Positions 28,577-40,223 of a stretch of 49,553 nt of DNA are shown here, piece by piece. The stretch comes from Promethearchaeota archaeon. GTDB lineage: Archaea; Asgardarchaeota; Lokiarchaeia; Sigyniarchaeales; SOKP01. The translations under genes and the position numbers were made by a program. Within the stretch, counting starts at the first letter, position 1. Every line of letters starts with the position of its first letter. The stretch is taken from the NCBI GenBank assembly GCA_048940645.1, contig JBHLOI010000025.1, positions 1-49,553 of the forward strand, written 5' to 3'. Under the pieces are notes generated by a model. That model did not search any database. It was not told the origin of the DNA and was given only the letters and a program-made list of their open reading frames with translations.

Positions 28577-29263
28577 TTATACAGCACTTGTTAATAAAAT
28601 CATTATATAATCCGCAACACTTTCAATTGCATCTGAAATAGCCTCAATTATATCAAAAACATTGCCTGCTGTGAAAGCTGTAAAATAATTTACATCATAC
28701 TTTGTTTCTTGTAGACTTTTTCTCAGCTTAATATTCAAAAGATCTACCTTATGTTCATATTGATTTATCTGCCGAGCATATTCTTTTATATTTTTTCTTT
28801 CCTCTAATAAATCTATAACGATTTTATCTAAAAAACTGGAGCATTCTACGGTAGATTTCATCATTTCAGTAACTATACTTATAGTTTCTGCGTTACTTTG
28901 TTCCCAAAATTTTAAAGGTATTGTATTTATTCTCCGAGCTACACCAGTGCAACAATTTGCGACATCATCCATTCTCTTAATTAAATGAGATAGATTTTGT
29001 CTTACACTTGGATCTAATTCTCCTTTAGAGACATCTCTTTGAATCTCTCTTCTTAATTTATCAGCATCCCCTTCGAGAAGATCGACTTTATGTAAATTCT
29101 CATGAGCTTTTTGAAGATCTTTTTCATTAAGTAAAATATTTAATCCAATTTCTAATTCCTTAACACATTCTTGTACAATTTGAGCATGTTTGATAGATTT
29201 TTCTAAAACATTTAATGTGGTTTTTCTTTTCAAAAACTCAATCAATGATCCCATTTTAATCAA
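28577..29263 (-). CDS. DUF47 / PhoU-like phosphate transport regulator
   Basis: LEGDADKLRR, YEHKVD, ISDAIESVADYI; downstream of pit. Confidence 0.85.
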   Translation of the reverse strand: MIKMGSLIEFLKRKTTLNVLEKSIKHAQIVQECVKELEIGLNILLNEKDLQKAHENLHKVDLLEGDADKLRREIQRDVSKGELDPSVRQNLSHLIKRMDDVANCCTGVARRINTIPLKFWEQSNAETISIVTEMMKSTVECSSFLDKIVIDLLEERKNIKEYARQINQYEHKVDLLNIKLRKSLQETKYDVNYFTAFTAGNVFDIIEAISDAIESVADYIMILLTSAV

Positions 29264-29316
29264 TCAAATTTTCTTTCTTAATGTTCATTATATTACTATA
29301 TGCTATATATATTTTA

Positions 29317-30348
29317 TTAGACTAATCCAATTAGATTTAATCCAAAATAAATAAGTCCAGCCATAATACCTGCTATTGGGAAAGTTAATACCCAATATAT
29401 CGCCATTTTTCCTAAATTTTTGAGATCGATTTCTTTTTTCTGTGCTTTATTCATACCAACTATACAAAAAACGATAACGTGACTATGAGAAATTGGTAAA
29501 CCAAACAATGTAGCGATCATTAAAATTATTGAGGAACTTGATTGAGTAATAAGCCCTTCACTTGGACGAGCATTAGTCATTTGAGAAGCTAAATTCCTTA
29601 TTACATATCTTGCTGCTATAAAAATTCCAAAAAATGCAAATATCCCGCATAATATTGCAAAGAAAAAGTACTGTCCTAAATTTAATGAACCATTATTCAG
29701 TAGACCATAAAGAATGCCTAACGCTTCCCCTGAGTTTGCTCCTACCCAAATCTCTGCAAATGAAACACTCGCAAGCAAAAACCATTTAAAATATCTTTCC
29801 GATTTTTCAATTTGATTTAATCCTCTTAATTTTGATAAGTATGTTTTTGCTAAAATTTTGAATAAAAGATAAGTAATTATCAAACCGAATAAGGGAGATA
29901 AGAACCAACTAAGAATTATATTGCCGAGTTTATCCCAATTTAATGCTGTTTCAGGATTTACTCCCCCTTGAGAGATTGCATATACAATTAAAACACCGAC
30001 TACACTACCAAGTAAAGAATGCGTACTGCTTAAAGGAATCCCTGCAAAACTCCCAATTATTAACCAGATAATGCTACTTATTAAAACGGTTAATAGCATA
30101 AATGTTGTATAGGTGATTCCTTCGCCCAGGATATCTGAACCAACTGTTTTTGCTACAAACCCAGAACTAAAAGCGATCATACCACCTCCAATAGCTACTC
30201 CACCTATTATTAAGGCAATTTTAAATTTTACAACTCCTGCACCTACTAAAGTGGATAAGGTTTCATCATTTGCTCCTATAGAAAATGCAAGGCCAACAGC
30301 CAATATAATTAGAACTATAATTATGACTAGTGTTAAATCGTCAGCCAT
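29317..30348 (-). CDS. pit: PiT-family inorganic phosphate transporter
   Basis: GAND, GIPLSSTHS, SWFLSP, GLPISHSH; multi-TM. Confidence 0.9.
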   Translation of the reverse strand: MADDLTLVIIIVLIILAVGLAFSIGANDETLSTLVGAGVVKFKIALIIGGVAIGGGMIAFSSGFVAKTVGSDILGEGITYTTFMLLTVLISSIIWLIIGSFAGIPLSSTHSLLGSVVGVLIVYAISQGGVNPETALNWDKLGNIILSWFLSPLFGLIITYLLFKILAKTYLSKLRGLNQIEKSERYFKWFLLASVSFAEIWVGANSGEALGILYGLLNNGSLNLGQYFFFAILCGIFAFFGIFIAARYVIRNLASQMTNARPSEGLITQSSSSIILMIATLFGLPISHSHVIVFCIVGMNKAQKKEIDLKNLGKMAIYWVLTFPIAGIMAGLIYFGLNLIGLV

Positions 30349-30370
30349 ATCGAATCATAATTTTTAGTTT

Positions 30371-31036
30371 TTATTCGAAAATTAAATATTTTGTTGCAAG
30401 AAATTGAATATATTCTGAAAAGCTTTTGATGTGATCAGCCAACATCATAATATCTTCAACAAGTTCTTTAAGATATAAAAAAGTCCTTGATAAATAATCC
30501 ATATCATAGTTATAAAGTTTATCTAACAATCGCCATTCCGCTTTTCTCATCTTACGTCTTTCTTCTTTTATATCTTCACAGACATCATGCGCTTTACTTA
30601 GATCAGACCCAATTAATTTAACAGCATCTGATAAAAAATTAGAAATGATCCTCAATGATTTGAGAATGTTTTGAATTTGAAGTTTAAATTCCTCATCAGG
30701 GAAGACAACCCTATAAAGAAGTAGTTTATTAGCCATGAATTCCCCAATATTTTTAATCTCATTAATTTTAGTAAATAATTTCAATCGATCTGCCTTTGAA
30801 AACATTAATTTGGACTTAAAAATTTTAGACTCAAATTTCTTTTTAATTGAGACCTCTGTATTAGTTTTAATAACATAGCTTAGATTTTGCTTAAATTCTT
30901 TGAAGTTCTCGTCTACAAGATATTCTATCCCTTTAATTAATCTGAAGTTTTGTTCATTAATAGTATCCATGAATAAGTGTGTTAATTCATCAATGCTCAT
31001 TTTACTAAGCTTCTTATCATCTATTTCCTCTTCCAT
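30371..31036 (-). CDS. Divergent DUF47/PhoU-like protein
   Basis: Helical-bundle pattern (ADRLKL, LADHIKSFSEYI); upstream of pit; start revised to ATG at 31036. Confidence 0.65.
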   Translation of the reverse strand: MEEEIDDKKLSKMSIDELTHLFMDTINEQNFRLIKGIEYLVDENFKEFKQNLSYVIKTNTEVSIKKKFESKIFKSKLMFSKADRLKLFTKINEIKNIGEFMANKLLLYRVVFPDEEFKLQIQNILKSLRIISNFLSDAVKLIGSDLSKAHDVCEDIKEERRKMRKAEWRLLDKLYNYDMDYLSRTFLYLKELVEDIMMLADHIKSFSEYIQFLATKYLIFE

Positions 31037-31248
31037 TTTTATCATCTTATAAATTTTTAGTTGAATAGCTAAGAAATAATTGAGATTCTTATTTAAGAAT
31101 AAATTTAATTGCATATAAGATTTAATTTTTTTTTTTGATTATTAATAGTAAAATAAAGAACATAATCAGCTATTTATTTTTTTATAGAGCCACATTTTTA
31201 CTTGAACTTCCCTCTTTTAAAACATAATGTCAAATCTGAACCTCATTT

Positions 31249-31290
31249 TACTCTATATATTATTATATAGAATATATAGAGTATATATAG
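31249..31290. promoter_or_regulatory. 13-bp perfect inverted repeat with TATATAG direct repeats in the divergent pit/ABC promoter region
   Basis: TACTCTATATATT (31249-31261), N9, AATATATAGAGTA (31271-31283); TATATAG at 31264, 31273, 31284. Confidence 0.5.
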
Positions 31291-31407
31291 TAATATTAAT
31301 GAATTATGGACTAATTTACATTATATATTCAATCAATTTTCATGATATATTGATAGATCAAGTTATTTCTACAAATATATGAAATAAAATACGAGGAGAA
31401 CTATTAT

Positions 31408-31506
31408 ATGTCTAGAAAAAGCATATATATTTTAATCTTTATTTTGGGAATTGGAGGAGGAATACTCTTTACTCTTATTGATTATTTTATTAGATCTTTT
31501 ATATAA
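31408..31506 (+). CDS. 32-aa single-TM peptide resembling the signal anchor of the downstream binding protein
   Basis: MSRKSIYILIFILGIGGGILFTLIDYFIRSFI, preceded by GAGGAG; similar to IVVIFILGFLTGALFTNI. Confidence 0.45.
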   Translation: MSRKSIYILIFILGIGGGILFTLIDYFIRSFI

Positions 31507-31526
31507 CGAAATAATATTTTTTTGTT

Positions 31527-32651
31527 ATGAAAAGTAAACACAAGGTTAAAAGAAGCAGTAAAGGAAATATTGTTGTAATATTCATTTTAGGTTTTTTAAC
31601 TGGAGCTCTCTTTACTAATATTGTGATTATTGGAAGGGAAGATGTGGTCCATATTACTATAATATATAGTTCTGAAAAAGCGAGTTGGATGACAATTGCT
31701 TATACAGATTTCATGTATGATTGGAGAAATACCCATCCAAGCGAAGAAATAAGAATTGATATGCATCCGTATGGCTCATCAGATTCAATTATTAGTATTC
31801 TTAATGGAGAGATATTTCCCACGATATGGAGCCCAGCAAGTTCTATCTGGATGACATTTTTAAACACTAAATGGGCAGAATACACTGGAGATCTTGAACC
31901 GATAGTTAACATTTCTGCTGCAGTAAAAATAATTTATTCCCCTATTGTCATTGCCACATGGGAGAGTTTTAATAACACATATGGAATAAATGGCTTTTCT
32001 GATCTCCATGCTTTAAATTTAAATCCGAGTGTGAACGTAAAAATGGCTCATACGGATCCTCGCTTGTCAAACTCTGGATATATGAGCACTATTATGGCGA
32101 TAGCTGCTGCATCGGGAGTAGATTCAAAAGATTTATTGATGAGTGATCTAACAGACCCAGCAAATCAGCAATGGCTTACCGAGTTTGAGTCCAGCGCGGT
32201 GATGTATGGAAAATCAACGGGTTTTTTAAGTCGTTATATGAAAAATAAAGGCCCTAACGGCTTAAACGTTGCTTTCCTTTATGAAAATTTAATAAGAGAT
32301 ATTTCTAACGAAGCAACAGGAGGTAAAATCATTGCAGTATATCCAGAAGAAGGTACCCTTTATAGTGATCACCCATTTTGTATTTTAAATGCCAATTGGA
32401 TCACATCAGAGCAGCGAATGGTTGCTAAAGCATTTCTAGAATTTCTTAATAAAAATGATACGGTTATTTCGGCAATGGAATATGGCTTTCGTCCAATTGA
32501 TACTTCAATTCCCTTAGATTCGGCAGTGTTTAATTATGCAACAAATGGAATTGCTTTTAATATTACAGTTCCTGAATTAAGCACGCCAAATGATGGTGAA
32601 GTTCTACTAAAAATTCCAGATCTATGGTTATTATGTAAGGCAACAGCATAA
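31527..32651 (+). CDS. ABC transporter substrate-binding protein (type usually associated with vWA domains)
   Basis: N-terminal TM anchor; SSEK, WSPASS, SPIVIA, TDPRLSNSG, YEN, YPEEGTLYSDHP. Confidence 0.8.
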   Translation: MKSKHKVKRSSKGNIVVIFILGFLTGALFTNIVIIGREDVVHITIIYSSEKASWMTIAYTDFMYDWRNTHPSEEIRIDMHPYGSSDSIISILNGEIFPTIWSPASSIWMTFLNTKWAEYTGDLEPIVNISAAVKIIYSPIVIATWESFNNTYGINGFSDLHALNLNPSVNVKMAHTDPRLSNSGYMSTIMAIAAASGVDSKDLLMSDLTDPANQQWLTEFESSAVMYGKSTGFLSRYMKNKGPNGLNVAFLYENLIRDISNEATGGKIIAVYPEEGTLYSDHPFCILNANWITSEQRMVAKAFLEFLNKNDTVISAMEYGFRPIDTSIPLDSAVFNYATNGIAFNITVPELSTPNDGEVLLKIPDLWLLCKATA

Positions 32652-32674
32652 AGGTTATTTATGATGGTGAAACT

Positions 32675-34333
32675 TTGAGGAGAAAAAATTTGAATGAGGA
32701 ATTTAAGGGAGAAATGATACATCTTCCATTAAGTTTAAAAATAGAAAGATTTTTTTCCAAACCTATCTATAGAAAGAGTCTTGATTCTATTACATTAGCC
32801 TTTTTTGCATTAGTTATTATTGGTCCTATTATTAACATATTTTCTACTATTTTTTTGAATATACCCTCCATTGGCGAAGATGTTTTTAATGATGCTCTAA
32901 TAGGAAATCTTCAATGGTTAAATATTCTAAATTCTCTTGGAGTTTCCTTTTCAATTGCTTCAATCGCAGTAGCTGTAGACTTAATAATTGCATTTCCAAT
33001 TTCTATAATATTAACCCGATATAATTTTAGAGGAAAAAAGATTTTAGATGCCTTAGTTGATTTACCCATGGCTGTACCTACTAGCGCATTAGGGTTCTCT
33101 GTTTTACTTTACTGGGGTATTTTTGGGGTTGAACCCGGTTATACTTTAATCATTTTAGGGCATATTCTTTTTACTTTTCCTTATATTGTTCGAAATATGA
33201 AAATTGTACTAGAAAAAGCGGATGTTTTATATGAAGATGCCGCTCGAACGCTTGGAGCTCCAGGAATAACTGTTTTTCGAACAATTACTTTGCCAATGAT
33301 GAAGGAAGGAGTTATTGCTGGTGCTATTCTTGCTTTTACGAGAAGTTTGGGAGAAACTGGAGCTACAATAATTATGTCAGGTTTAGTTGAAACTGCTCCA
33401 ATTTTGATCGTTGGCTTCCGCAGACAATTAGAATTACCTTCAGCTTCATTTTTAGCTGGAATATTAATATCAATTTCATTGATTCTTCTCTTTTCCATTA
33501 AATTTTTTACGAGAAAAGTCGGTTTTCCAGTTAAAAGGGTATGGCCTAATATTGAACGTTTTTTTAGCAATAAGTACTTTCGTTATTTTAGAGACGTTCT
33601 AATGATGATCATTCTTATATCTATATTTCTTATTCCGTCATTCTTCATTCTCAGTCAAATTTTCGAAGGAGATTTGATTGGAGAGTTATTCTTAAGTCAA
33701 GATTATAAATGGGCTTATCTATATGCAAGCTTTTTGAGTTCAATTGAAATAGGTGCATTAGCAGTAGTTATCAATCTTATTTTTGGGTTACCCTTTGCTT
33801 TTATAATTACTAAACGAAAATGGGGAAAAGTTATCACTTTTCTTGACACTATCCTCGATATACCAATAGCTATTCCTTCAGCAGCACTAGGGTTTGCTAT
33901 TTTCCTGTTTTGGGGTCCCGCAGGATTAGGTTTATTTCAGCCAGGATTTTTTATGATATTATTCGTTCATGTATCGTTTTCATTTCCATATATGGTTAGG
34001 CCAATTATTGGAGTGTTAGAAAGTGCAAATGTAGGAGTTGAAGAAGCCGCTCGAACTTTAGGAGCATCTAATTTAACTGTATTTAGAAAAATAACGCTCC
34101 CTAATATAAAGCAAGGAATTATCGCAGGCAGTATAATGGTTTTTACTCGTTCACTTGGAGAAACTGGTGCAACTATTGTAGTTATGGGAAGTATCAGAAC
34201 AATTCCCGTATTAATTGTAGATTGGGTTGAAGCAAATGCCTTTCCAAGCGCTATATTTGCTAGCACACTCGTTATCATATTTAGTGCTATTTTAATTTTC
34301 GCATTGAGAGTTGTAAGAAAAAGAAAGAGGTGA
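32675..34333 (+). CDS. ABC transporter permease with two fused TMDs (CysT/CysW/ModB/FbpB-like)
   Basis: Two EAA loops (YEDAARTLGA, VEEAARTLGA); duplicated DLPMAVP/DIPIAIP and FTRSLGETGAT. Confidence 0.92.
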   Translation: MRRKNLNEEFKGEMIHLPLSLKIERFFSKPIYRKSLDSITLAFFALVIIGPIINIFSTIFLNIPSIGEDVFNDALIGNLQWLNILNSLGVSFSIASIAVAVDLIIAFPISIILTRYNFRGKKILDALVDLPMAVPTSALGFSVLLYWGIFGVEPGYTLIILGHILFTFPYIVRNMKIVLEKADVLYEDAARTLGAPGITVFRTITLPMMKEGVIAGAILAFTRSLGETGATIIMSGLVETAPILIVGFRRQLELPSASFLAGILISISLILLFSIKFFTRKVGFPVKRVWPNIERFFSNKYFRYFRDVLMMIILISIFLIPSFFILSQIFEGDLIGELFLSQDYKWAYLYASFLSSIEIGALAVVINLIFGLPFAFIITKRKWGKVITFLDTILDIPIAIPSAALGFAIFLFWGPAGLGLFQPGFFMILFVHVSFSFPYMVRPIIGVLESANVGVEEAARTLGASNLTVFRKITLPNIKQGIIAGSIMVFTRSLGETGATIVVMGSIRTIPVLIVDWVEANAFPSAIFASTLVIIFSAILIFALRVVRKRKR

Positions 34334-35484
34334 GAAATTTACCTAAAATAGAATTATTTGATGTTACAAAAACCTTTAATGAGGGAAAAATTCTTGCAGT
34401 AGATAATATTTCTTTAAAAATTGAAGATGGCGATTATGTTTTTTTACTTGGACCAACTGGATGTGGCAAAACAACCACTTTAAGAATGATTGCCGGACTT
34501 GAAAAACCGACAAAAGGAACGATTTTAATTAATGGTAAGGATGTCGAGGAAATTCCTCCTGAAGATAGAGATATGGGATTTATATTTCAACATTTTGAAA
34601 TTTTTGATCATTTAACGGTTTGGGAAAATGTAACCTTTGGGTTAGAGATGCGTGGTTATAAAGAAAATTATATCATTGAAAAGGCAGAAAATGCTTTAAG
34701 AATTGTTGAACTATTAGATTATGCTGATGAATTCCCTTCGATATTTGGTAATCCAGGAATGCAAAAATTAGGAATTGCTAGAGCAATAGCAACAGGAGCA
34801 AAAATATTAATTATGGATGAACCCCTAGGTTCTCTCGATCCTAAAGTATCAAAAGTCTTTCGTCATGAATTAAGAAATCTGATTAAGGATTTAGGTCTTA
34901 CTGCTATACATGTTACCCATAATCAGGAAGAGGCAATGGCTATTGCAGACAAAATTATAATTATGAGATCGGGAAAAATTCTTCAAATGGGTACGCCATA
35001 TGAACTATATGAAAATCCAAATAGCATATTTGTTGCAAATTTCTTGGGTGAAACTAATTTTCTTCAAGGATTTGTGTTAAAAGTACTTGATAATGAAAAA
35101 ATGTCAATTTGGATTCGCCTAGGCGGACCAAAATTTAATTGTAATAATTTTGGTAATAATTTTAATTTGGATGACCATATTGTAATATCTTTTCGTTTTG
35201 AAGATGTCTATTTATTTCCTAAAGATTATGAATTTGAAAGCAGTCCTTATGATTGGTCTAAAATTCAATTTTTTATTGCCAAATTAGAAACTTCAAGATT
35301 TATTGGAGCCACTAAGAGATTTTATTTAACTCTGGATAACGGGGATAAGTTTTTGTCAATTAAACCAGGAACTTTTGAAGAGAATTTCACTGCAGGGGAG
35401 GAATTAATTATAGGCGTTCATCAAGATGATATTCATGTATTCAAAGCACCAAAAAATCTAATGAATGAATTATCTTTAACATAA
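34330..35484 (+). CDS. ABC ATP-binding subunit (PotA/CysA-like) with degenerate signature motif
   Basis: GPTGCGKT, ILIMDEP, HVTHN; FGNPG in place of LSGGQ. Confidence 0.92.
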   Translation: MRNLPKIELFDVTKTFNEGKILAVDNISLKIEDGDYVFLLGPTGCGKTTTLRMIAGLEKPTKGTILINGKDVEEIPPEDRDMGFIFQHFEIFDHLTVWENVTFGLEMRGYKENYIIEKAENALRIVELLDYADEFPSIFGNPGMQKLGIARAIATGAKILIMDEPLGSLDPKVSKVFRHELRNLIKDLGLTAIHVTHNQEEAMAIADKIIIMRSGKILQMGTPYELYENPNSIFVANFLGETNFLQGFVLKVLDNEKMSIWIRLGGPKFNCNNFGNNFNLDDHIVISFRFEDVYLFPKDYEFESSPYDWSKIQFFIAKLETSRFIGATKRFYLTLDNGDKFLSIKPGTFEENFTAGEELIIGVHQDDIHVFKAPKNLMNELSLT

Positions 35485-35502
35485 TTAAGAGGTCTTGAAT
35501 TA

Positions 35503-36726
35503 ATGGTTAATATTAGATTATATAATGTGTCGAAATCTTATAGGAAATTCAATGCACTTGATCAAATTTCACTTGAAATCAAAGATAAAGAATATTTTAT
35601 TATTTTAGGTCCGACAGGAACAGGCAAAACAACTTTATTAAAAATTATTGCTGGTTTAATTAAACCTGATTCAGGAAAAGTATTGTTTGATAATAAAGAT
35701 GTTACAAATAACGCCTCGGGAGAAAGAAATTTAGGATTTATGTTTGAAAATTATGCATTATTTCCCCATATGAATATTGTTGAAAATATATCATATAGCG
35801 GGCGTGTACATGCTAGAGATACTAAAAATACAAAAACCCTTGTTGATCAAGTATTAATGATGACATTACTCACAGGGAGAGATGATGCAATGCCAGAAGA
35901 GTTAAGTGGTGGTATGAAACAACGTGTTGCTCTTTGTAGAGCTCTTTTAAATTTAGAGCAAACAAAACTGCTCATCTTAGATGAACCACTTAAAGCACTT
36001 GATGCAGGTCTAAGAATGAGTTTAAGAAGAGAATTATTATTAATGGCAAAGTCAAAAGAATTAGAGTTAACTGTGGTTCATGTTACTAATGAACAAGAGG
36101 AGGCAATGATGGTTGCAGACAGAATAGCTATAATTAATCAAGGAAAATTGATACAAGTTGGAACCCCTCATGAGATCTATTATCATCCAAAAAATCTATT
36201 CGTTGCTAATTTTATGAGTGAAATAAATTATTTTGATGGTATTTGTAAAAAAGAAGAAATTCCCTCATGGGATATTTTAAAAGAATCAAAAAGAGGCGAT
36301 AAACTCTATGCAGAAATCCACAGAGATTCAATTCCTATACCAGTTGATATAGGTCTAGATAATCTCTTCGCCGCTTATTTACTAAAAGATAGAATTGGTG
36401 AGATTCAACGGGGGGATAAAGTTTTATTGGTAATTAGATCAAATCATATGAAAATTCGATTAGGTAATCGTGTACAACAAAAACGTAATGCGATTCTAGG
36501 AAGAATACATAGGCGTAAATTTATGGGTGTTTTTTATAGATTTGAAGTTAAATTAAATATAAAAAAACAAGAAAAAATAATCATTGTTACTATACCAGCA
36601 ACATCGGAGATTCACAATAATTTTTTAGAGGATTTAGAGGTTACAGTATATTTTCCGAAAGAATTAGGCATCTTATTTAAACATCCTGGTGAAAAGGTTA
36701 TAAAAGAAGTATTAAAATTAGAATAA
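35503..36726 (+). CDS. ABC ATP-binding subunit (PotA/CysA-like) with altered Q-loop and H-switch
   Basis: GPTGTGKT, MFENY, LSGGMKQR, LILDEP, HVTNE. Confidence 0.92.
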   Translation: MVNIRLYNVSKSYRKFNALDQISLEIKDKEYFIILGPTGTGKTTLLKIIAGLIKPDSGKVLFDNKDVTNNASGERNLGFMFENYALFPHMNIVENISYSGRVHARDTKNTKTLVDQVLMMTLLTGRDDAMPEELSGGMKQRVALCRALLNLEQTKLLILDEPLKALDAGLRMSLRRELLLMAKSKELELTVVHVTNEQEEAMMVADRIAIINQGKLIQVGTPHEIYYHPKNLFVANFMSEINYFDGICKKEEIPSWDILKESKRGDKLYAEIHRDSIPIPVDIGLDNLFAAYLLKDRIGEIQRGDKVLLVIRSNHMKIRLGNRVQQKRNAILGRIHRRKFMGVFYRFEVKLNIKKQEKIIIVTIPATSEIHNNFLEDLEVTVYFPKELGILFKHPGEKVIKEVLKLE

Positions 36727-36770
36727 AAATAAAAATTTAGTAAAATATTACGAATTAGGGAGGTTTTGAT

Positions 36771-37454
36771 ATGAGTGCATTATTTGAATGGTTTAAGTCT
36801 CGAAATGAAGAAAGTGCTATAAATAAGACTTTAGTTCATATGCAAAAGGTTCTTGAGTGTGTAGTTGAATATGAAAAAGCAATTTCATTTTTGGTTGAGG
36901 AAAAAAATATTGATCTTGCATTAAAAGTTCTTTTTCGTGTAAATGAATTGGAAGATGAAGCTGATGGAATTAGGCGAGATATACACAAGATGCTTTCAAA
37001 AGCCGAACTTACATCTATTATTCGTGAAAATCTAATCCATCTAGCTGATAGAATTGATAATATAGCAAATGCCACAAATGCAAGTGCAAGAATTCTTATT
37101 TATATGAATCATACTGATTTTTTGAAGCTTGATAAACAGATTCATAAAAACGTTTTAGAAATGGCAAGGATATCTGTAGAAGCTGTTAAAAAACTAAATT
37201 TTATGGTAAATAAATTACTTTCTGCTGAAGAAGCTGCGATACAGAAATTGGGAGAAGAAGTTAATACTCTCGAGCATCAATGCGATGAATTGCGTTTTGC
37301 TATAAATAGAATATTAGTTTCAAACAGGCTTGATATTAATCCATTTAGTGCTATAGAAATACATAGTTGTATTTCTGCACTTGAATCTATTAGCGATAAC
37401 GCTGAAGATGTAGCTGATTATATCATCATGTTAACAGTAGCCAAAAAGTCTTGA
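36771..37454 (+). CDS. DUF47 / PhoU-like phosphate transport regulator
   Basis: LEDEADGIRR, LEHQCD, ISDNAEDVADYI; GGAGG upstream. Confidence 0.88.
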   Translation: MSALFEWFKSRNEESAINKTLVHMQKVLECVVEYEKAISFLVEEKNIDLALKVLFRVNELEDEADGIRRDIHKMLSKAELTSIIRENLIHLADRIDNIANATNASARILIYMNHTDFLKLDKQIHKNVLEMARISVEAVKKLNFMVNKLLSAEEAAIQKLGEEVNTLEHQCDELRFAINRILVSNRLDINPFSAIEIHSCISALESISDNAEDVADYIIMLTVAKKS

Positions 37455-37798: not shown

Positions 37799-38038
37799 AT
37801 GATGTTTTCATTTTTAAAACGTTTAACTGATTGTTTACAAGGGAAGGAATATATTATATCACATGTACGAGCAGGATATACGGCAAAAAGAAGACTTGCT
37901 AATTTAGGAATTATTCCTGGAGAAAAGATAATAAAAAGCAGAGCTGCTCCATTTCATGGTCCAATAGAAGTAATTATAAAAGGAACAAAACTTGTTCTAG
38001 GAAGAGGATTAGCAACAAAGATAATAGTGAGAGAATAA
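37799..38038 (+). CDS. feoA: Ferrous iron transport protein A
   Basis: RRLANLGIIPG, APFHGP, LVLGRGLA. Confidence 0.93.
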   Translation: MMFSFLKRLTDCLQGKEYIISHVRAGYTAKRRLANLGIIPGEKIIKSRAAPFHGPIEVIIKGTKLVLGRGLATKIIVRE

Positions 38039-38084
38039 AAATCATTATTTAGTTTAAAATTAATTAAGTCATTTTATACTGATT

Positions 38085-40223
38085 ATGAGAATAACTTGTC
38101 ATAAATCTAGTAAAAATAAAATTAAAAAAAGTAAGAAGTATAAGGGCGTCATTAATATAGCATTAGCAGGTAATGCAAACGTTGGAAAATCTGTAATATT
38201 TAATCAGCTTACAGGACTTTCACAAACGATTGGAAACTGGCCTGGAAAAACTGTGGAAAGAATGGAAGGGCATTTGGAATTTTTAGGCTATCGGTTTGAT
38301 ATTATTGATTTACCAGGTATTTATTCCTTATCAACATATTCATTAGAAGAAATTGTAAGTAGAGAATATATTGTATCAGATGAGGTGGATGTTATAATTA
38401 ATGTAATTGACGCCACAAACCTGGAACGTAATTTATTTCTTACTTTCCAATTATTGGAATTAAAAGTTCCTATAATATTGGCTATAAACCAAATGGATAT
38501 TTTAAAAAAGAGAAATATTGATATAGACTTTAAAAAGTTTGAGAGCATTTTAGAATTACCGGTAATTCCATTAGTAGCGGTTCACGGAATGGGAGTACAT
38601 CAATTACTTGAAGAAGCTATTGAATTAGCTGTTTATCATCACACTCATGAACATTACATCAAGGATGGGAAAATAAAACATGAAACTTTATCTCATACAA
38701 ACAAAATATCAATGCAAAATAAAATTTCAATAAAAAAATTATTCCAATTTCCAGATTTAAAACCCCTTCTTTCTTATGGAAAAGAAGTAGAAGATAAATT
38801 AGATGCTATAGAAGCCGAATTAAAAGGATTTGAAGAATATATTTCGCAATTTAACTATCCCAGTCGATTTATAGCAATAAAAATATTAGAAAATGATGAA
38901 GAAATCATAAAACTTTTTGAAAAAAATGAAGTTAAAAAAAGAATACTTCAATTAGCTGAAAAATATCGGAGAAGTTTAGAGAAATATCACGGTGAAGATA
39001 TTAATACCATAATTTCATCTGAAATTTATAATAATATTCGAAAAATTATTGAAGAAGTTTTAACAGTCAAATCTAAGGGAAAAATAAAAACCTCATTTGC
39101 GGAAAAACTCGATCATATAACTGCTCATTCTTTCTGGGGATATATAATACTTGCTTTGATTCTTATTGGTATATATTATTTCACTTTTCTGATAGGAGGT
39201 TTTTTAGGAGAACTTATTGATAATGTTTTTGGTATTTGGAGTGAAATAATCTATAATAGTTATGGAAGTACCAATATATTAGTGTTTATTATATGGGATG
39301 GAGCAATGGGCGGATTATTTGGTGCGGTGGGTGGTGTTTTGGTTTATGTCATACCGTTCTTTTTAATAATTGAAATCTTGCAAGATTCAGGATATTTGCC
39401 CAGAGCCGCATTTCTTATGGATAGATTTATGCACTTTCTAGGAGTTCATGGAAAAACTATAATTCCAATGATATTAGGTTTTGGTTGCAATGTTCCTGCT
39501 TGTACAGGTTGTAGAATTATGGAAACTCAGCGTGAAAAAAAGATATCTATAGCTTTAACTTCATTGATTCCTTGTGCTGCTGTGATGGTTGTAGTTTTAG
39601 GGTTAGTTGGAAGATATCTAGGTCCTGGTTGGGTTATAATATTATTTATTATTAATTTTTTAGTAATAATAATTGTAGGGAGATTGTTAAATAAAATCTT
39701 ACCCGGTGAATGTACAGAATTAATAATGGAAATGCATGAATACAGGGTTCCAAACTATAATGTGATTCTTAAGCAGACATGGATAAGAACAAAAGAATTT
39801 GTATATAAATCCATGCCAATAATTATCGGTATTGGGATATTAATGGAGATCATGTTTATCTTTCGATTATTAGATCCTATTAACTTTATTATGAGTCCAA
39901 TAACAAGATTTTGGTTAGGTTTACCATTCATTACCGGGATATTTTTAATTTACGGAATTTTAAGAAAGGAATTAACTCTAATCCTTTTGCAAGTGCTTGC
40001 AAATTCTATGGGGTTAACAATTTTACAATTATTGTCTCCTATCCAGATTATTGTTTTTAGCTTGGTTACTATGCTCTATATTCCTTGCTTCGCTACAATA
40101 ATTATTATCGCTCGTGAAACAAATTGGAGATATGCATTTAAAATATCGATTTTAGAAATATCATTAGCTTTAATAATTGGTGGTATCATAAATTGGAGTT
40201 ACATTTTTGTTTCTAGTTTTTAA
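38085..40223 (+). CDS. feoB: Ferrous iron transport protein B
   Basis: GNANVGKS, NWPGKTVE, DLPGIYSL, DSGYLPR, GFGCNVP, LYIPC. Confidence 0.96.
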   Translation: MRITCHKSSKNKIKKSKKYKGVINIALAGNANVGKSVIFNQLTGLSQTIGNWPGKTVERMEGHLEFLGYRFDIIDLPGIYSLSTYSLEEIVSREYIVSDEVDVIINVIDATNLERNLFLTFQLLELKVPIILAINQMDILKKRNIDIDFKKFESILELPVIPLVAVHGMGVHQLLEEAIELAVYHHTHEHYIKDGKIKHETLSHTNKISMQNKISIKKLFQFPDLKPLLSYGKEVEDKLDAIEAELKGFEEYISQFNYPSRFIAIKILENDEEIIKLFEKNEVKKRILQLAEKYRRSLEKYHGEDINTIISSEIYNNIRKIIEEVLTVKSKGKIKTSFAEKLDHITAHSFWGYIILALILIGIYYFTFLIGGFLGELIDNVFGIWSEIIYNSYGSTNILVFIIWDGAMGGLFGAVGGVLVYVIPFFLIIEILQDSGYLPRAAFLMDRFMHFLGVHGKTIIPMILGFGCNVPACTGCRIMETQREKKISIALTSLIPCAAVMVVVLGLVGRYLGPGWVIILFIINFLVIIIVGRLLNKILPGECTELIMEMHEYRVPNYNVILKQTWIRTKEFVYKSMPIIIGIGILMEIMFIFRLLDPINFIMSPITRFWLGLPFITGIFLIYGILRKELTLILLQVLANSMGLTILQLLSPIQIIVFSLVTMLYIPCFATIIIIARETNWRYAFKISILEISLALIIGGIINWSYIFVSSF

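Follow-up and report, generated by a model that had tools for sequence, protein, structure and literature searches.

The window analyzed here is a stretch of 49,553 nt, contig C32 (GenBank JBHLOI010000025.1) of a 3.83-Mb, 89.6%-complete genome of a Promethearchaeota/Loki-type Asgard archaeon. It contains an operon for an ATP-binding cassette (ABC) importer that ends in a gene for a PhoU-like protein of the DUF47 family. On balance we read this operon as encoding an importer for small tetrahedral oxyanions within a Pho regulon, the probable cargo being inorganic phosphate or else a phosphorus oxyanion very close to it. We favor phosphate because the importer has an invariant PhoU-like partner, phosphate genes as neighbors and a pstS-type operator, because no other ABC route for phosphorus was found in this genome, and because no linkage to sulfate or molybdate/tungstate genes was seen.

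An earlier reading of this DNA, the original prediction, had described two divergent operons, DUF47-PiT-DUF47 on the minus strand and peptide, substrate-binding protein (SBP), permease, two ATPases and DUF47 on the plus strand. We found exactly this layout, with an AT-rich spacer of 360 bp (31046-31407) separating the minus-strand from the plus-strand genes. The features are as follows, with bit scores to be read against Pfam gathering scores of 24.4 for PF01865 and 33.7 for PF01384.

28577-29263, minus strand: DUF47a (PhoU_div; PF01865, 91.7 bits), last gene of the PiT cassette, with acidic ExxxD-type motifs kept
29317-30348, minus strand: secondary transporter of the PiT/PHO4 family (PF01384, 166.5 bits)
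30371-31045, minus strand: degenerate DUF47 paralogue, recognized by a profile-profile match (start at M24; the open reading frame, ORF, of 247 aa extends to 31114)
31264-31287: tandem TATATAG repeats (TATATAGAATATATAGAGTATATA) in the divergent promoter region, a candidate Pho-type operator
31408-31506, plus strand: membrane microprotein of 32 aa with one transmembrane helix, first gene of the ABC operon, preceded by AGGAG
31527-32651, plus strand: SBP (PF13531, 52.5 bits)
32675-34333, plus strand: fused double permease with two BPD_transp_1 domains (PF00528, two stretches)
34330-35484, plus strand: ATPase 1 (PF00005 and TOBE_2), with a C-terminal TOBE-like domain
35503-36726, plus strand: ATPase 2, PotA/PhnT2/CysA-like by NCBIfam, with a TOBE-like tail
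36771-37454, plus strand: DUF47b (PF01865, 83.1 bits), last gene of the ABC operon

The count of three DUF47/PhoU-like genes in the original prediction also proved right, two of them being recognized by PF01865 and the third through profile-profile comparison and the names of its homologues.

The predicted linkage of the ABC genes to DUF47 is conserved well beyond this genome. We scanned one genome per species using the narrower SBP alignment as a profile, the wider alignment being too diverse, and located the SBP-permease-ATPase-ATPase-DUF47 operon at 79 loci in Loki/Promethearchaeota, Thor, Odin, Hermod, Hod, Heimdall, Borr, Sigyn, Asgardarchaeum and Bathyarchaeia, among them the cultured Ca. 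Lokiarchaeum ossiferum. DUF47 was counted in loci with at least 800 bp beyond the last ATPase gene (n = 62), with the window proteins mapped onto them. It was adjacent in 62 of 62, as the next co-oriented gene and the last of the operon in 57, whereas in the remaining 5 it lay either on the opposite side or on the opposite strand. At about 35% SBP identity the linkage still held, on a metagenome contig that has just one ATPase gene. An adjacent DUF47 gene in every one of 62 loci indicates that the arrangement is not due to chance. The 32-aa peptide is likewise conserved at the protein level, in 53 related loci that include Ca. Lokiarchaeum ossiferum, and has the C-terminus D-x-[YF]-I-[RKN]-S-F-I. 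Gene callers mostly miss this small gene or put it on the wrong strand.

The flanks (±9 kb) of 78 loci held the PiT transporter in 23 cases, the degenerate DUF47 in 24, an AbrB-PhoU gene in 22 and a phosphodiesterase of the alkaline phosphatase (AP) superfamily (Phosphodiest, PF01663) in 22. At three loci (L041-L043) a canonical phoU-pstB-fused pstCA operon was the next neighbor. Such neighbors, together with the promoter element described below, tie the ABC operon to phosphate genes. Canonical PstC and PstA were found fused in one frame of 640-740 aa in relatives (for example G138:C106:13179-15050, G147:C2:239060-240952, L041:17205-19121), a parallel to the fused permease of the ABC operon.

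The phosphodiesterase bears on a different reading, which we consider unlikely: that the system imports organophosphorus (a phosphodiester, phosphomonoester or phosphonate), which the phosphodiesterase, often encoded upstream, hydrolyzes in the cytoplasm, much as with ugpBAEC-ugpQ or phnSTUV in the Pho regulon. In the 22 of 78 loci with Phosphodiest, the gene lies directly upstream and is co-oriented, and the orthologue of this genome begins at its catalytic domain and has no signal peptide. Asgardarchaeota have also been reported to carry phnWX (PMC12106651). However, in this genome the phosphodiesterase (C102, C114) is not linked to the operon, and it is absent from the Heimdall and Bathyarchaeia flanks, whereas DUF47 is always present, and the phosphonatase PhnX was not found above cut-off in this genome. 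At C102:14150-14290, directly before this unlinked orthologue of Phosphodiest, there is a tRNA-like sequence that seems to contain an insert, which may be an intron.

The divergent promoter region provided a second line of evidence. The spacer contains CTCTATATA-N4-TATATAGAATATATAGAGTATATATAG, and orthologous spacers and intergenic regions have kept this sequence. The exact 16-mer TATATAGAATATATAG occurs only twice in the 3.83-Mb genome, once 121 nt upstream of the start of the 32-aa peptide and once on C96, 108 nt upstream of the gene for AbrB-PhoU (C96:11925-12923). Five copies of its core, TATAGAAT[AC]TATA, are present in the genome; three are intergenic, and the third of these stands before a gene for a PHP-domain phosphoesterase. 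Of six genome-wide matches to a relaxed motif, the three that were intragenic were discarded. In related loci we found the tandem motif in 42 of the 127 intergenic regions that precede the SBP operon, AbrB-PhoU, the degenerate DUF47 or DUF47a and in 3 of the 475 other ones, counts that span related, non-independent genomes. The core lay upstream of true pstS in 5 of 5 relatives, at a distance of roughly 115 nt as judged by eye, and before 0 of 2 TupA-like genes. Of all the evidence, this shared element speaks most strongly for a common regulon of the ABC operon and pstS. The third intergenic copy of the core (C54:69313-69326; L125:2514-2527) has an alpha/beta hydrolase gene on one side and, on the other, a pair encoding the PHP phosphoesterase and a DUF5714 protein; the pair and the hydrolase gene are candidates for further regulon members.

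We then considered what the binding protein might recognize. A helix at the N-terminus of the SBP (residues 12-36) forms a membrane anchor. The fold that follows is of class II, with an anion site like that of Sbp, in a structure model with a predicted local distance difference test (pLDDT) value of 90.8. The SBP had been predicted not to resemble PstS, and in Pfam it matches PF13531 alone, not PF12849 (PBP_like_2). The best Foldseek matches were the sulfate-binding proteins 5um2 and 1sbp, and by VIA the best was again 1sbp, with Z 28.5 and a root-mean-square deviation of 2.9 over 289 residues. Close behind came other cluster-D proteins, the thiamin-binding TbpA (Z 27.7), SubI (26.5) and the phosphonate-system protein PhnS (4r6y, 25.2); the list also held the sugar-phosphate binders AfuA and VcA0625, and Fe3+-binding proteins at Z 21-23. 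When the SBP family profile was compared with the PDB, the sole significant matches were sulfate-binding proteins (1sbp, E 1.6e-6). A phmmer search of PDB sequences with the single SBP sequence gave nothing meaningful, Sbp being reached by the family profile only. Against E. coli Sbp, hhalign gave 79.7% at an identity of 14-18%, and no NCBIfam model matched the SBP.

The sulfate contacts of Sbp in 1SBP we take to be D11, S45, S130, G131, G132, A173 and W192. The hhalign alignment places these on S48, S84, S181, N182, S183, G228 and Y252 of the SBP, all of which except S48 are invariant or nearly so in the SBP family. Given the Sbp-like fold and profile matches and these aligned, mostly conserved positions, the receptor appears to be built for a small oxyanion, although which oxyanion is not readable from sequence alone. 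PhnS, AfuA and VcA0625 in the fold list would suit an organophosphorus cargo; position by position, the SBP aligns best to the small-anion site of Sbp.

These matches also argue for a sulfate/thiosulfate importer of a divergent SulT type, one feeding the synthesis of 3'-phosphoadenosine 5'-phosphosulfate (PAPS) for sulfated surface glycans and co-regulated with phosphate genes by happenstance, a reading we hold to be quite unlikely. The genome encodes ATP sulfurylase and adenosine 5'-phosphosulfate (APS) kinase in a glycan cluster, and ATP sulfurylase was found in 23 of 36 genomes with the system versus 51 of 115 without it, a mild and phylogenetically confounded trend. That leaves 13 of the 36 system genomes, including the 100%-complete G083, without ATP sulfurylase, and PAPS reductase was not found in this genome. 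Within ±9 kb of the operon we found no sulfate-activation gene, neither an ATP sulfurylase nor an APS kinase homologue, in about 88 loci. Also at odds with a sulfate importer are the operator in common with pstS and AbrB-PhoU, the PhoU-like protein as the invariant operon partner, scores under the CysT, CysW and CysA equivalog cut-offs, and an identity to Sbp of merely 14-18%.

More than 100 homologues of the SBP were present in Asgard archaea at 66-95% identity. The next-closest relatives, at 29-39% identity, are bacterial SBP_bac_11-vWA fusions (annotated "substrate-binding and VWA domain-containing" or "Ca-activated chloride channel family"), which, unlike the SBP here, have a C-terminal vWA domain and in some cases extra SBP_bac_3 or OpuAC domains. 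In the two fusion contexts examined (P0143 and P0145; loci L127-L129) there were no permease, ATPase or phosphate genes, and small unannotated genes stood there instead; these contexts gave no clue to the ligand and were dropped as a lead.

The permease and the ATPases had been predicted to resemble CysT/W-ModB and PotA/CysA, respectively, and their NCBIfam scores agree. Summed over its two fused domains, the permease scored best on the sulfate permease subfamily TIGR00969 (240.7 versus a cut-off of 240) and on ModB (216.1 versus 182.6). It fell below the cut-offs of WtpB (198 versus 340), CysT (195.7 versus 246.1), CysW (172.1 versus 329.1) and PhnU2 (113.6 versus 593.25), and scored low on the Pst models PstC (TIGR02138, 65.1 versus 196.45) and PstA (TIGR00974, 57.6 versus 193.45). 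The best matches of the ATPases were PotA, PhnT2 and CysA, all under their equivalog cut-offs. PhnT2, the ATPase of a 2-aminoethylphosphonate ABC importer, was the top match of ATPase 2 and the second match of ATPase 1, just after PotA, which fits an organophosphorus cargo; the scores themselves, 280.4 and 285.1 for the two ATPases, are far under the cut-off of 457.7, as is that of the permease on PhnU2. On CysA the two scored 235.1 and 227 (cut-off 502), on WtpC 218.8 and 248.1 (440), on ModC 131.4 (285) and on PstB (TIGR00972) about 125-126 (343.2).

In alignments, ATPase 1 has consensus Walker A and B motifs, the Q-loop Gln and the H-loop His, with a degenerate signature, FGNPG instead of LSGGQ. 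ATPase 2 has a consensus LSGG signature, with Q-to-E in its Q-loop and H-to-N in its H-loop. Between them, the two ATPases thus have one ATP site of consensus type and one that is degenerate, an asymmetry that the orthologues from Lokiarchaeum, Heimdall and Bathyarchaeia share and that is unusual for a binding-protein-dependent importer.

We also weighed molybdate, tungstate or another non-phosphorus cargo such as Fe3+, in which case the phosphate-gene neighborhood would be an island coincidence; we think this highly improbable. In its favor are the ModB score, which passes its cut-off as a two-domain sum, the WtpB score of 198, the TOBE-like tails on both ATPases, the Fe3+-binding proteins in the SBP fold list, and the genes for the ferrous iron transporter FeoA-FeoB that lie directly downstream of DUF47b in the window (37799-40223, plus strand). 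FeoAB adjacency was not seen in other annotated related loci, so that FeoAB probably has nothing to do with the ABC operon. TupABC is already present in the genome, next to moaAC, and in about 88 loci we found no TupA homologue within ±9 kb and a single weak MoaA-like (radical-SAM) match near the operon. The WtpB, WtpC and ModC cut-offs were missed, and both the motif and the linkage to DUF47 speak for phosphate. Any cargo other than these, phosphate and its close oxyanions, organophosphorus, sulfate or thiosulfate, and non-phosphorus ions, takes the remaining odds.

Phosphate transporters of the Pit type have DUF47 as their established partner (PMC7326077, PMC9239043). DUF47a and PiT in the window form such a classical pair, like B. 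subtilis YkaA-Pit or S. aureus PhoU2/PitR-PitA, and differ from it in that a second, degenerate DUF47 gene precedes PiT. In contrast to the classical pairs, the DUF47b paralogue is wired to an ABC importer and not to a Pit carrier. The PiT protein is a clear PF01384 member, but its scores on NCBIfam PitA (59.8) and CysP (64) are both far below the cut-offs and do not settle phosphate versus sulfate specificity. DUF47a and DUF47b, both members of DUF47/PhoU_div by score, are 34% identical to each other, and DUF47b has a weak PhoU match in addition (23.1 bits). A 17-row alignment showed E61/D65, D96, E168/D172 and E205/D209/E212 to be invariant in the operon-linked set.

The 247-aa ORF, the third minus-strand gene, had no direct Pfam match, nor did BLASTP align it significantly with DUF47a or DUF47b. 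Homologues of the protein in the various Asgard lineages, with 77-93% identity, go under the name DUF47, many with a precomputed PF01865 match, and its family profile matched the DUF47 profile with an hhalign probability of 95.7% (E 9e-9, 206 columns). Conserved upstream DNA places the true start at M24. At most aligned positions the protein is without the invariant acidic residues (E61, D65, D96, E168, D172, E205, E212), and for this reason we call it a degenerate paralogue. A complex prediction for ATPase 1, ATPase 2 and DUF47b scored 0.44, while a control with ATPase 2 swapped scored 0.50; we read the two scores neither for nor against binding.

The original prediction had further suggested that the system might replace Pst in this lineage. 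At cut-off, neither PstS, PstC nor PstB was found in this 89.6%-complete genome, a TIGR02136 search was empty and PhnD was not found; the sole PF12849 match above cut-off is TupA, on C111, beside tupBC-moaAC. In the closest relative, G099 (99% complete; SBP 93% identical), the system is present and PstC was not found. Among 151 Asgard genomes PstC occurred in 80 and the SBP in 36, both together in 13, the SBP only in 23, Pst only in 67 and neither in 48. PstC thus accompanied 13 of the 36 genomes with the system and 67 of the 115 without, a mild trend that is phylogenetically confounded and to which we give little weight. Ca. Lokiarchaeum ossiferum has both systems. The suggestion is not supported for the lineage, where 13 of 36 system genomes have PstC, canonical pst is adjacent at L041-L043 and 48 genomes have neither system. 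From these co-occurrence counts, the system is an accessory, patchily distributed importer that does not replace Pst across the lineage. For this species, it is perhaps the sole ABC route to phosphorus.

Compared with known importers, the system combines traits of several. With PstSCAB-PhoU (PhoT family) it shares an outline gene order of SBP, two permease domains, ATPase(s) and a PhoU-fold protein last, a place beside PiT and PhoU-type genes, and the upstream DNA element that it has in common with the true pstS of relatives and with the AbrB-PhoU gene. None of its four transporter parts is a Pst family member, however, all Pst family tests having failed, and it differs further in its fused permease, its asymmetric ATPase heterodimer with TOBE-like tails, DUF47 in place of PhoU and the extra 32-aa membrane peptide. 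With SulT (Sbp/CysP-CysTWA) it shares an SBP whose best structural match and only significant PDB profile matches are of the sulfate-binding type, the aligned anion-contact positions, and permease halves that are most like CysT and CysW. The SBP differs from Sbp by W192 to Tyr, G131/G132 to Asn/Ser and D11 to Ser, besides the low identity, and the operon is linked always to a PhoU-like gene and never to sulfate-activation genes.

The system does not fall within ModABC, WtpABC or TupABC either, the ModB score being passed only as a two-domain sum and linkage to molybdenum or tungsten cofactor genes not having been found. Nor does it belong to the PhnSTUV or PhnS2T2U2 2-aminoethylphosphonate importers, with PhnT2 and PhnU2 below cut-off and no PhnX found. 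By its sequence relationships it appears to be an ABC importer with a PhoU-like regulator that has a Pst-like layout and regulon membership and is assembled from SulT/MolT-like parts without their equivalog scores or genomic associations.

Several observations weigh against phosphate as the cargo. The nearest characterized relatives of the SBP (1sbp, 5um2 and 6ddn) bind sulfate, and the permease just attains the sulfate-permease subfamily score, again as the sum of its two domains. For no SBP residue is a role as hydrogen-bond acceptor, the hallmark of phosphate sites, shown. The genome has ATP sulfurylase and APS kinase and so needs a sulfate source, and ATP sulfurylase is somewhat commoner where the system is present, within the confounding noted above. 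The presence of PstC in 13 of the 36 system genomes would suit a cargo other than inorganic phosphate, organophosphorus among them, and the neighboring phosphodiesterase without a signal peptide suits organophosphate uptake with hydrolysis inside the cell. Finally, because the motif counts come from related genomes, they overstate independence.

The region that encodes the sulfate-activation enzymes, C64:22000-36000 (L115), also holds genes for a phosphoenolpyruvate (PEP) mutase-nucleotidyltransferase fusion (phosphonate synthesis), a glycerophosphotransferase, a second Phosphodiest and three family 2 (GT2) glycosyltransferases, beside ATP sulfurylase and APS kinase. This cluster suggests phosphonate- and sulfate-decorated surface glycans in an Asgard archaeon.

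If the cargo is phosphate, the system might work as follows. The membrane-anchored, Sbp-like SBP would capture the anion outside the cell, and the fused CysTW/ModB-like double permease would carry it across the membrane, powered by the ATPase heterodimer with its one catalytic and one degenerate ATP site. The operon-terminal DUF47 would take the role of PhoU, throttling or reporting transporter activity at the ATPases, and the 32-aa membrane microprotein could be a sixth, accessory subunit. Transcription would be set by the tandem TATATAG operator, common to the AbrB-PhoU gene, the PiT cassette and, in relatives, pstS, with the AbrB-PhoU protein as its putative ligand. In this species the ABC system would then be the only ABC route for phosphorus, and the neighboring PiT cassette would serve as the low-affinity route.

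A broader proposal seems to us possible, though short of probable: that these operons represent a previously unrecognized family of phosphate ABC importers apart from Pst. Such a family would combine a sulfate/molybdate-type permease and ATPases with an Sbp-like receptor retuned for phosphate, obligatorily asymmetric ATPases, a DUF47 brake, a 32-aa subunit and a TATATAG operator bound by AbrB-PhoU, and would provide the main high-affinity phosphorus route in many Pst-less Asgard archaea and Bathyarchaeia. In the literature on DUF47 with ABC transporters, Asgard phosphate transport, SBP-vWA proteins and archaeal AbrB-PhoU, we found no description of a DUF47-linked ABC importer or of this SBP family.

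The usual teaching is that prokaryotes take up phosphate by Pst and Pit. If our interpretation is right, a second, unrelated ABC phosphate route with a PhoU-like partner would change the annotation of phosphorus acquisition in sediment archaea. Among the archaea concerned are those Asgard lineages that stand nearest to eukaryotes, and many of these, like this genome, show no Pst. DUF47 would gain its first defined partner besides Pit, a candidate archaeal Pho operator and regulon would be defined, and the large, uncharacterized SBP_bac_11/vWA family would have a ligand lead. The presence of the system in the cultured Ca. Lokiarchaeum ossiferum makes it testable.

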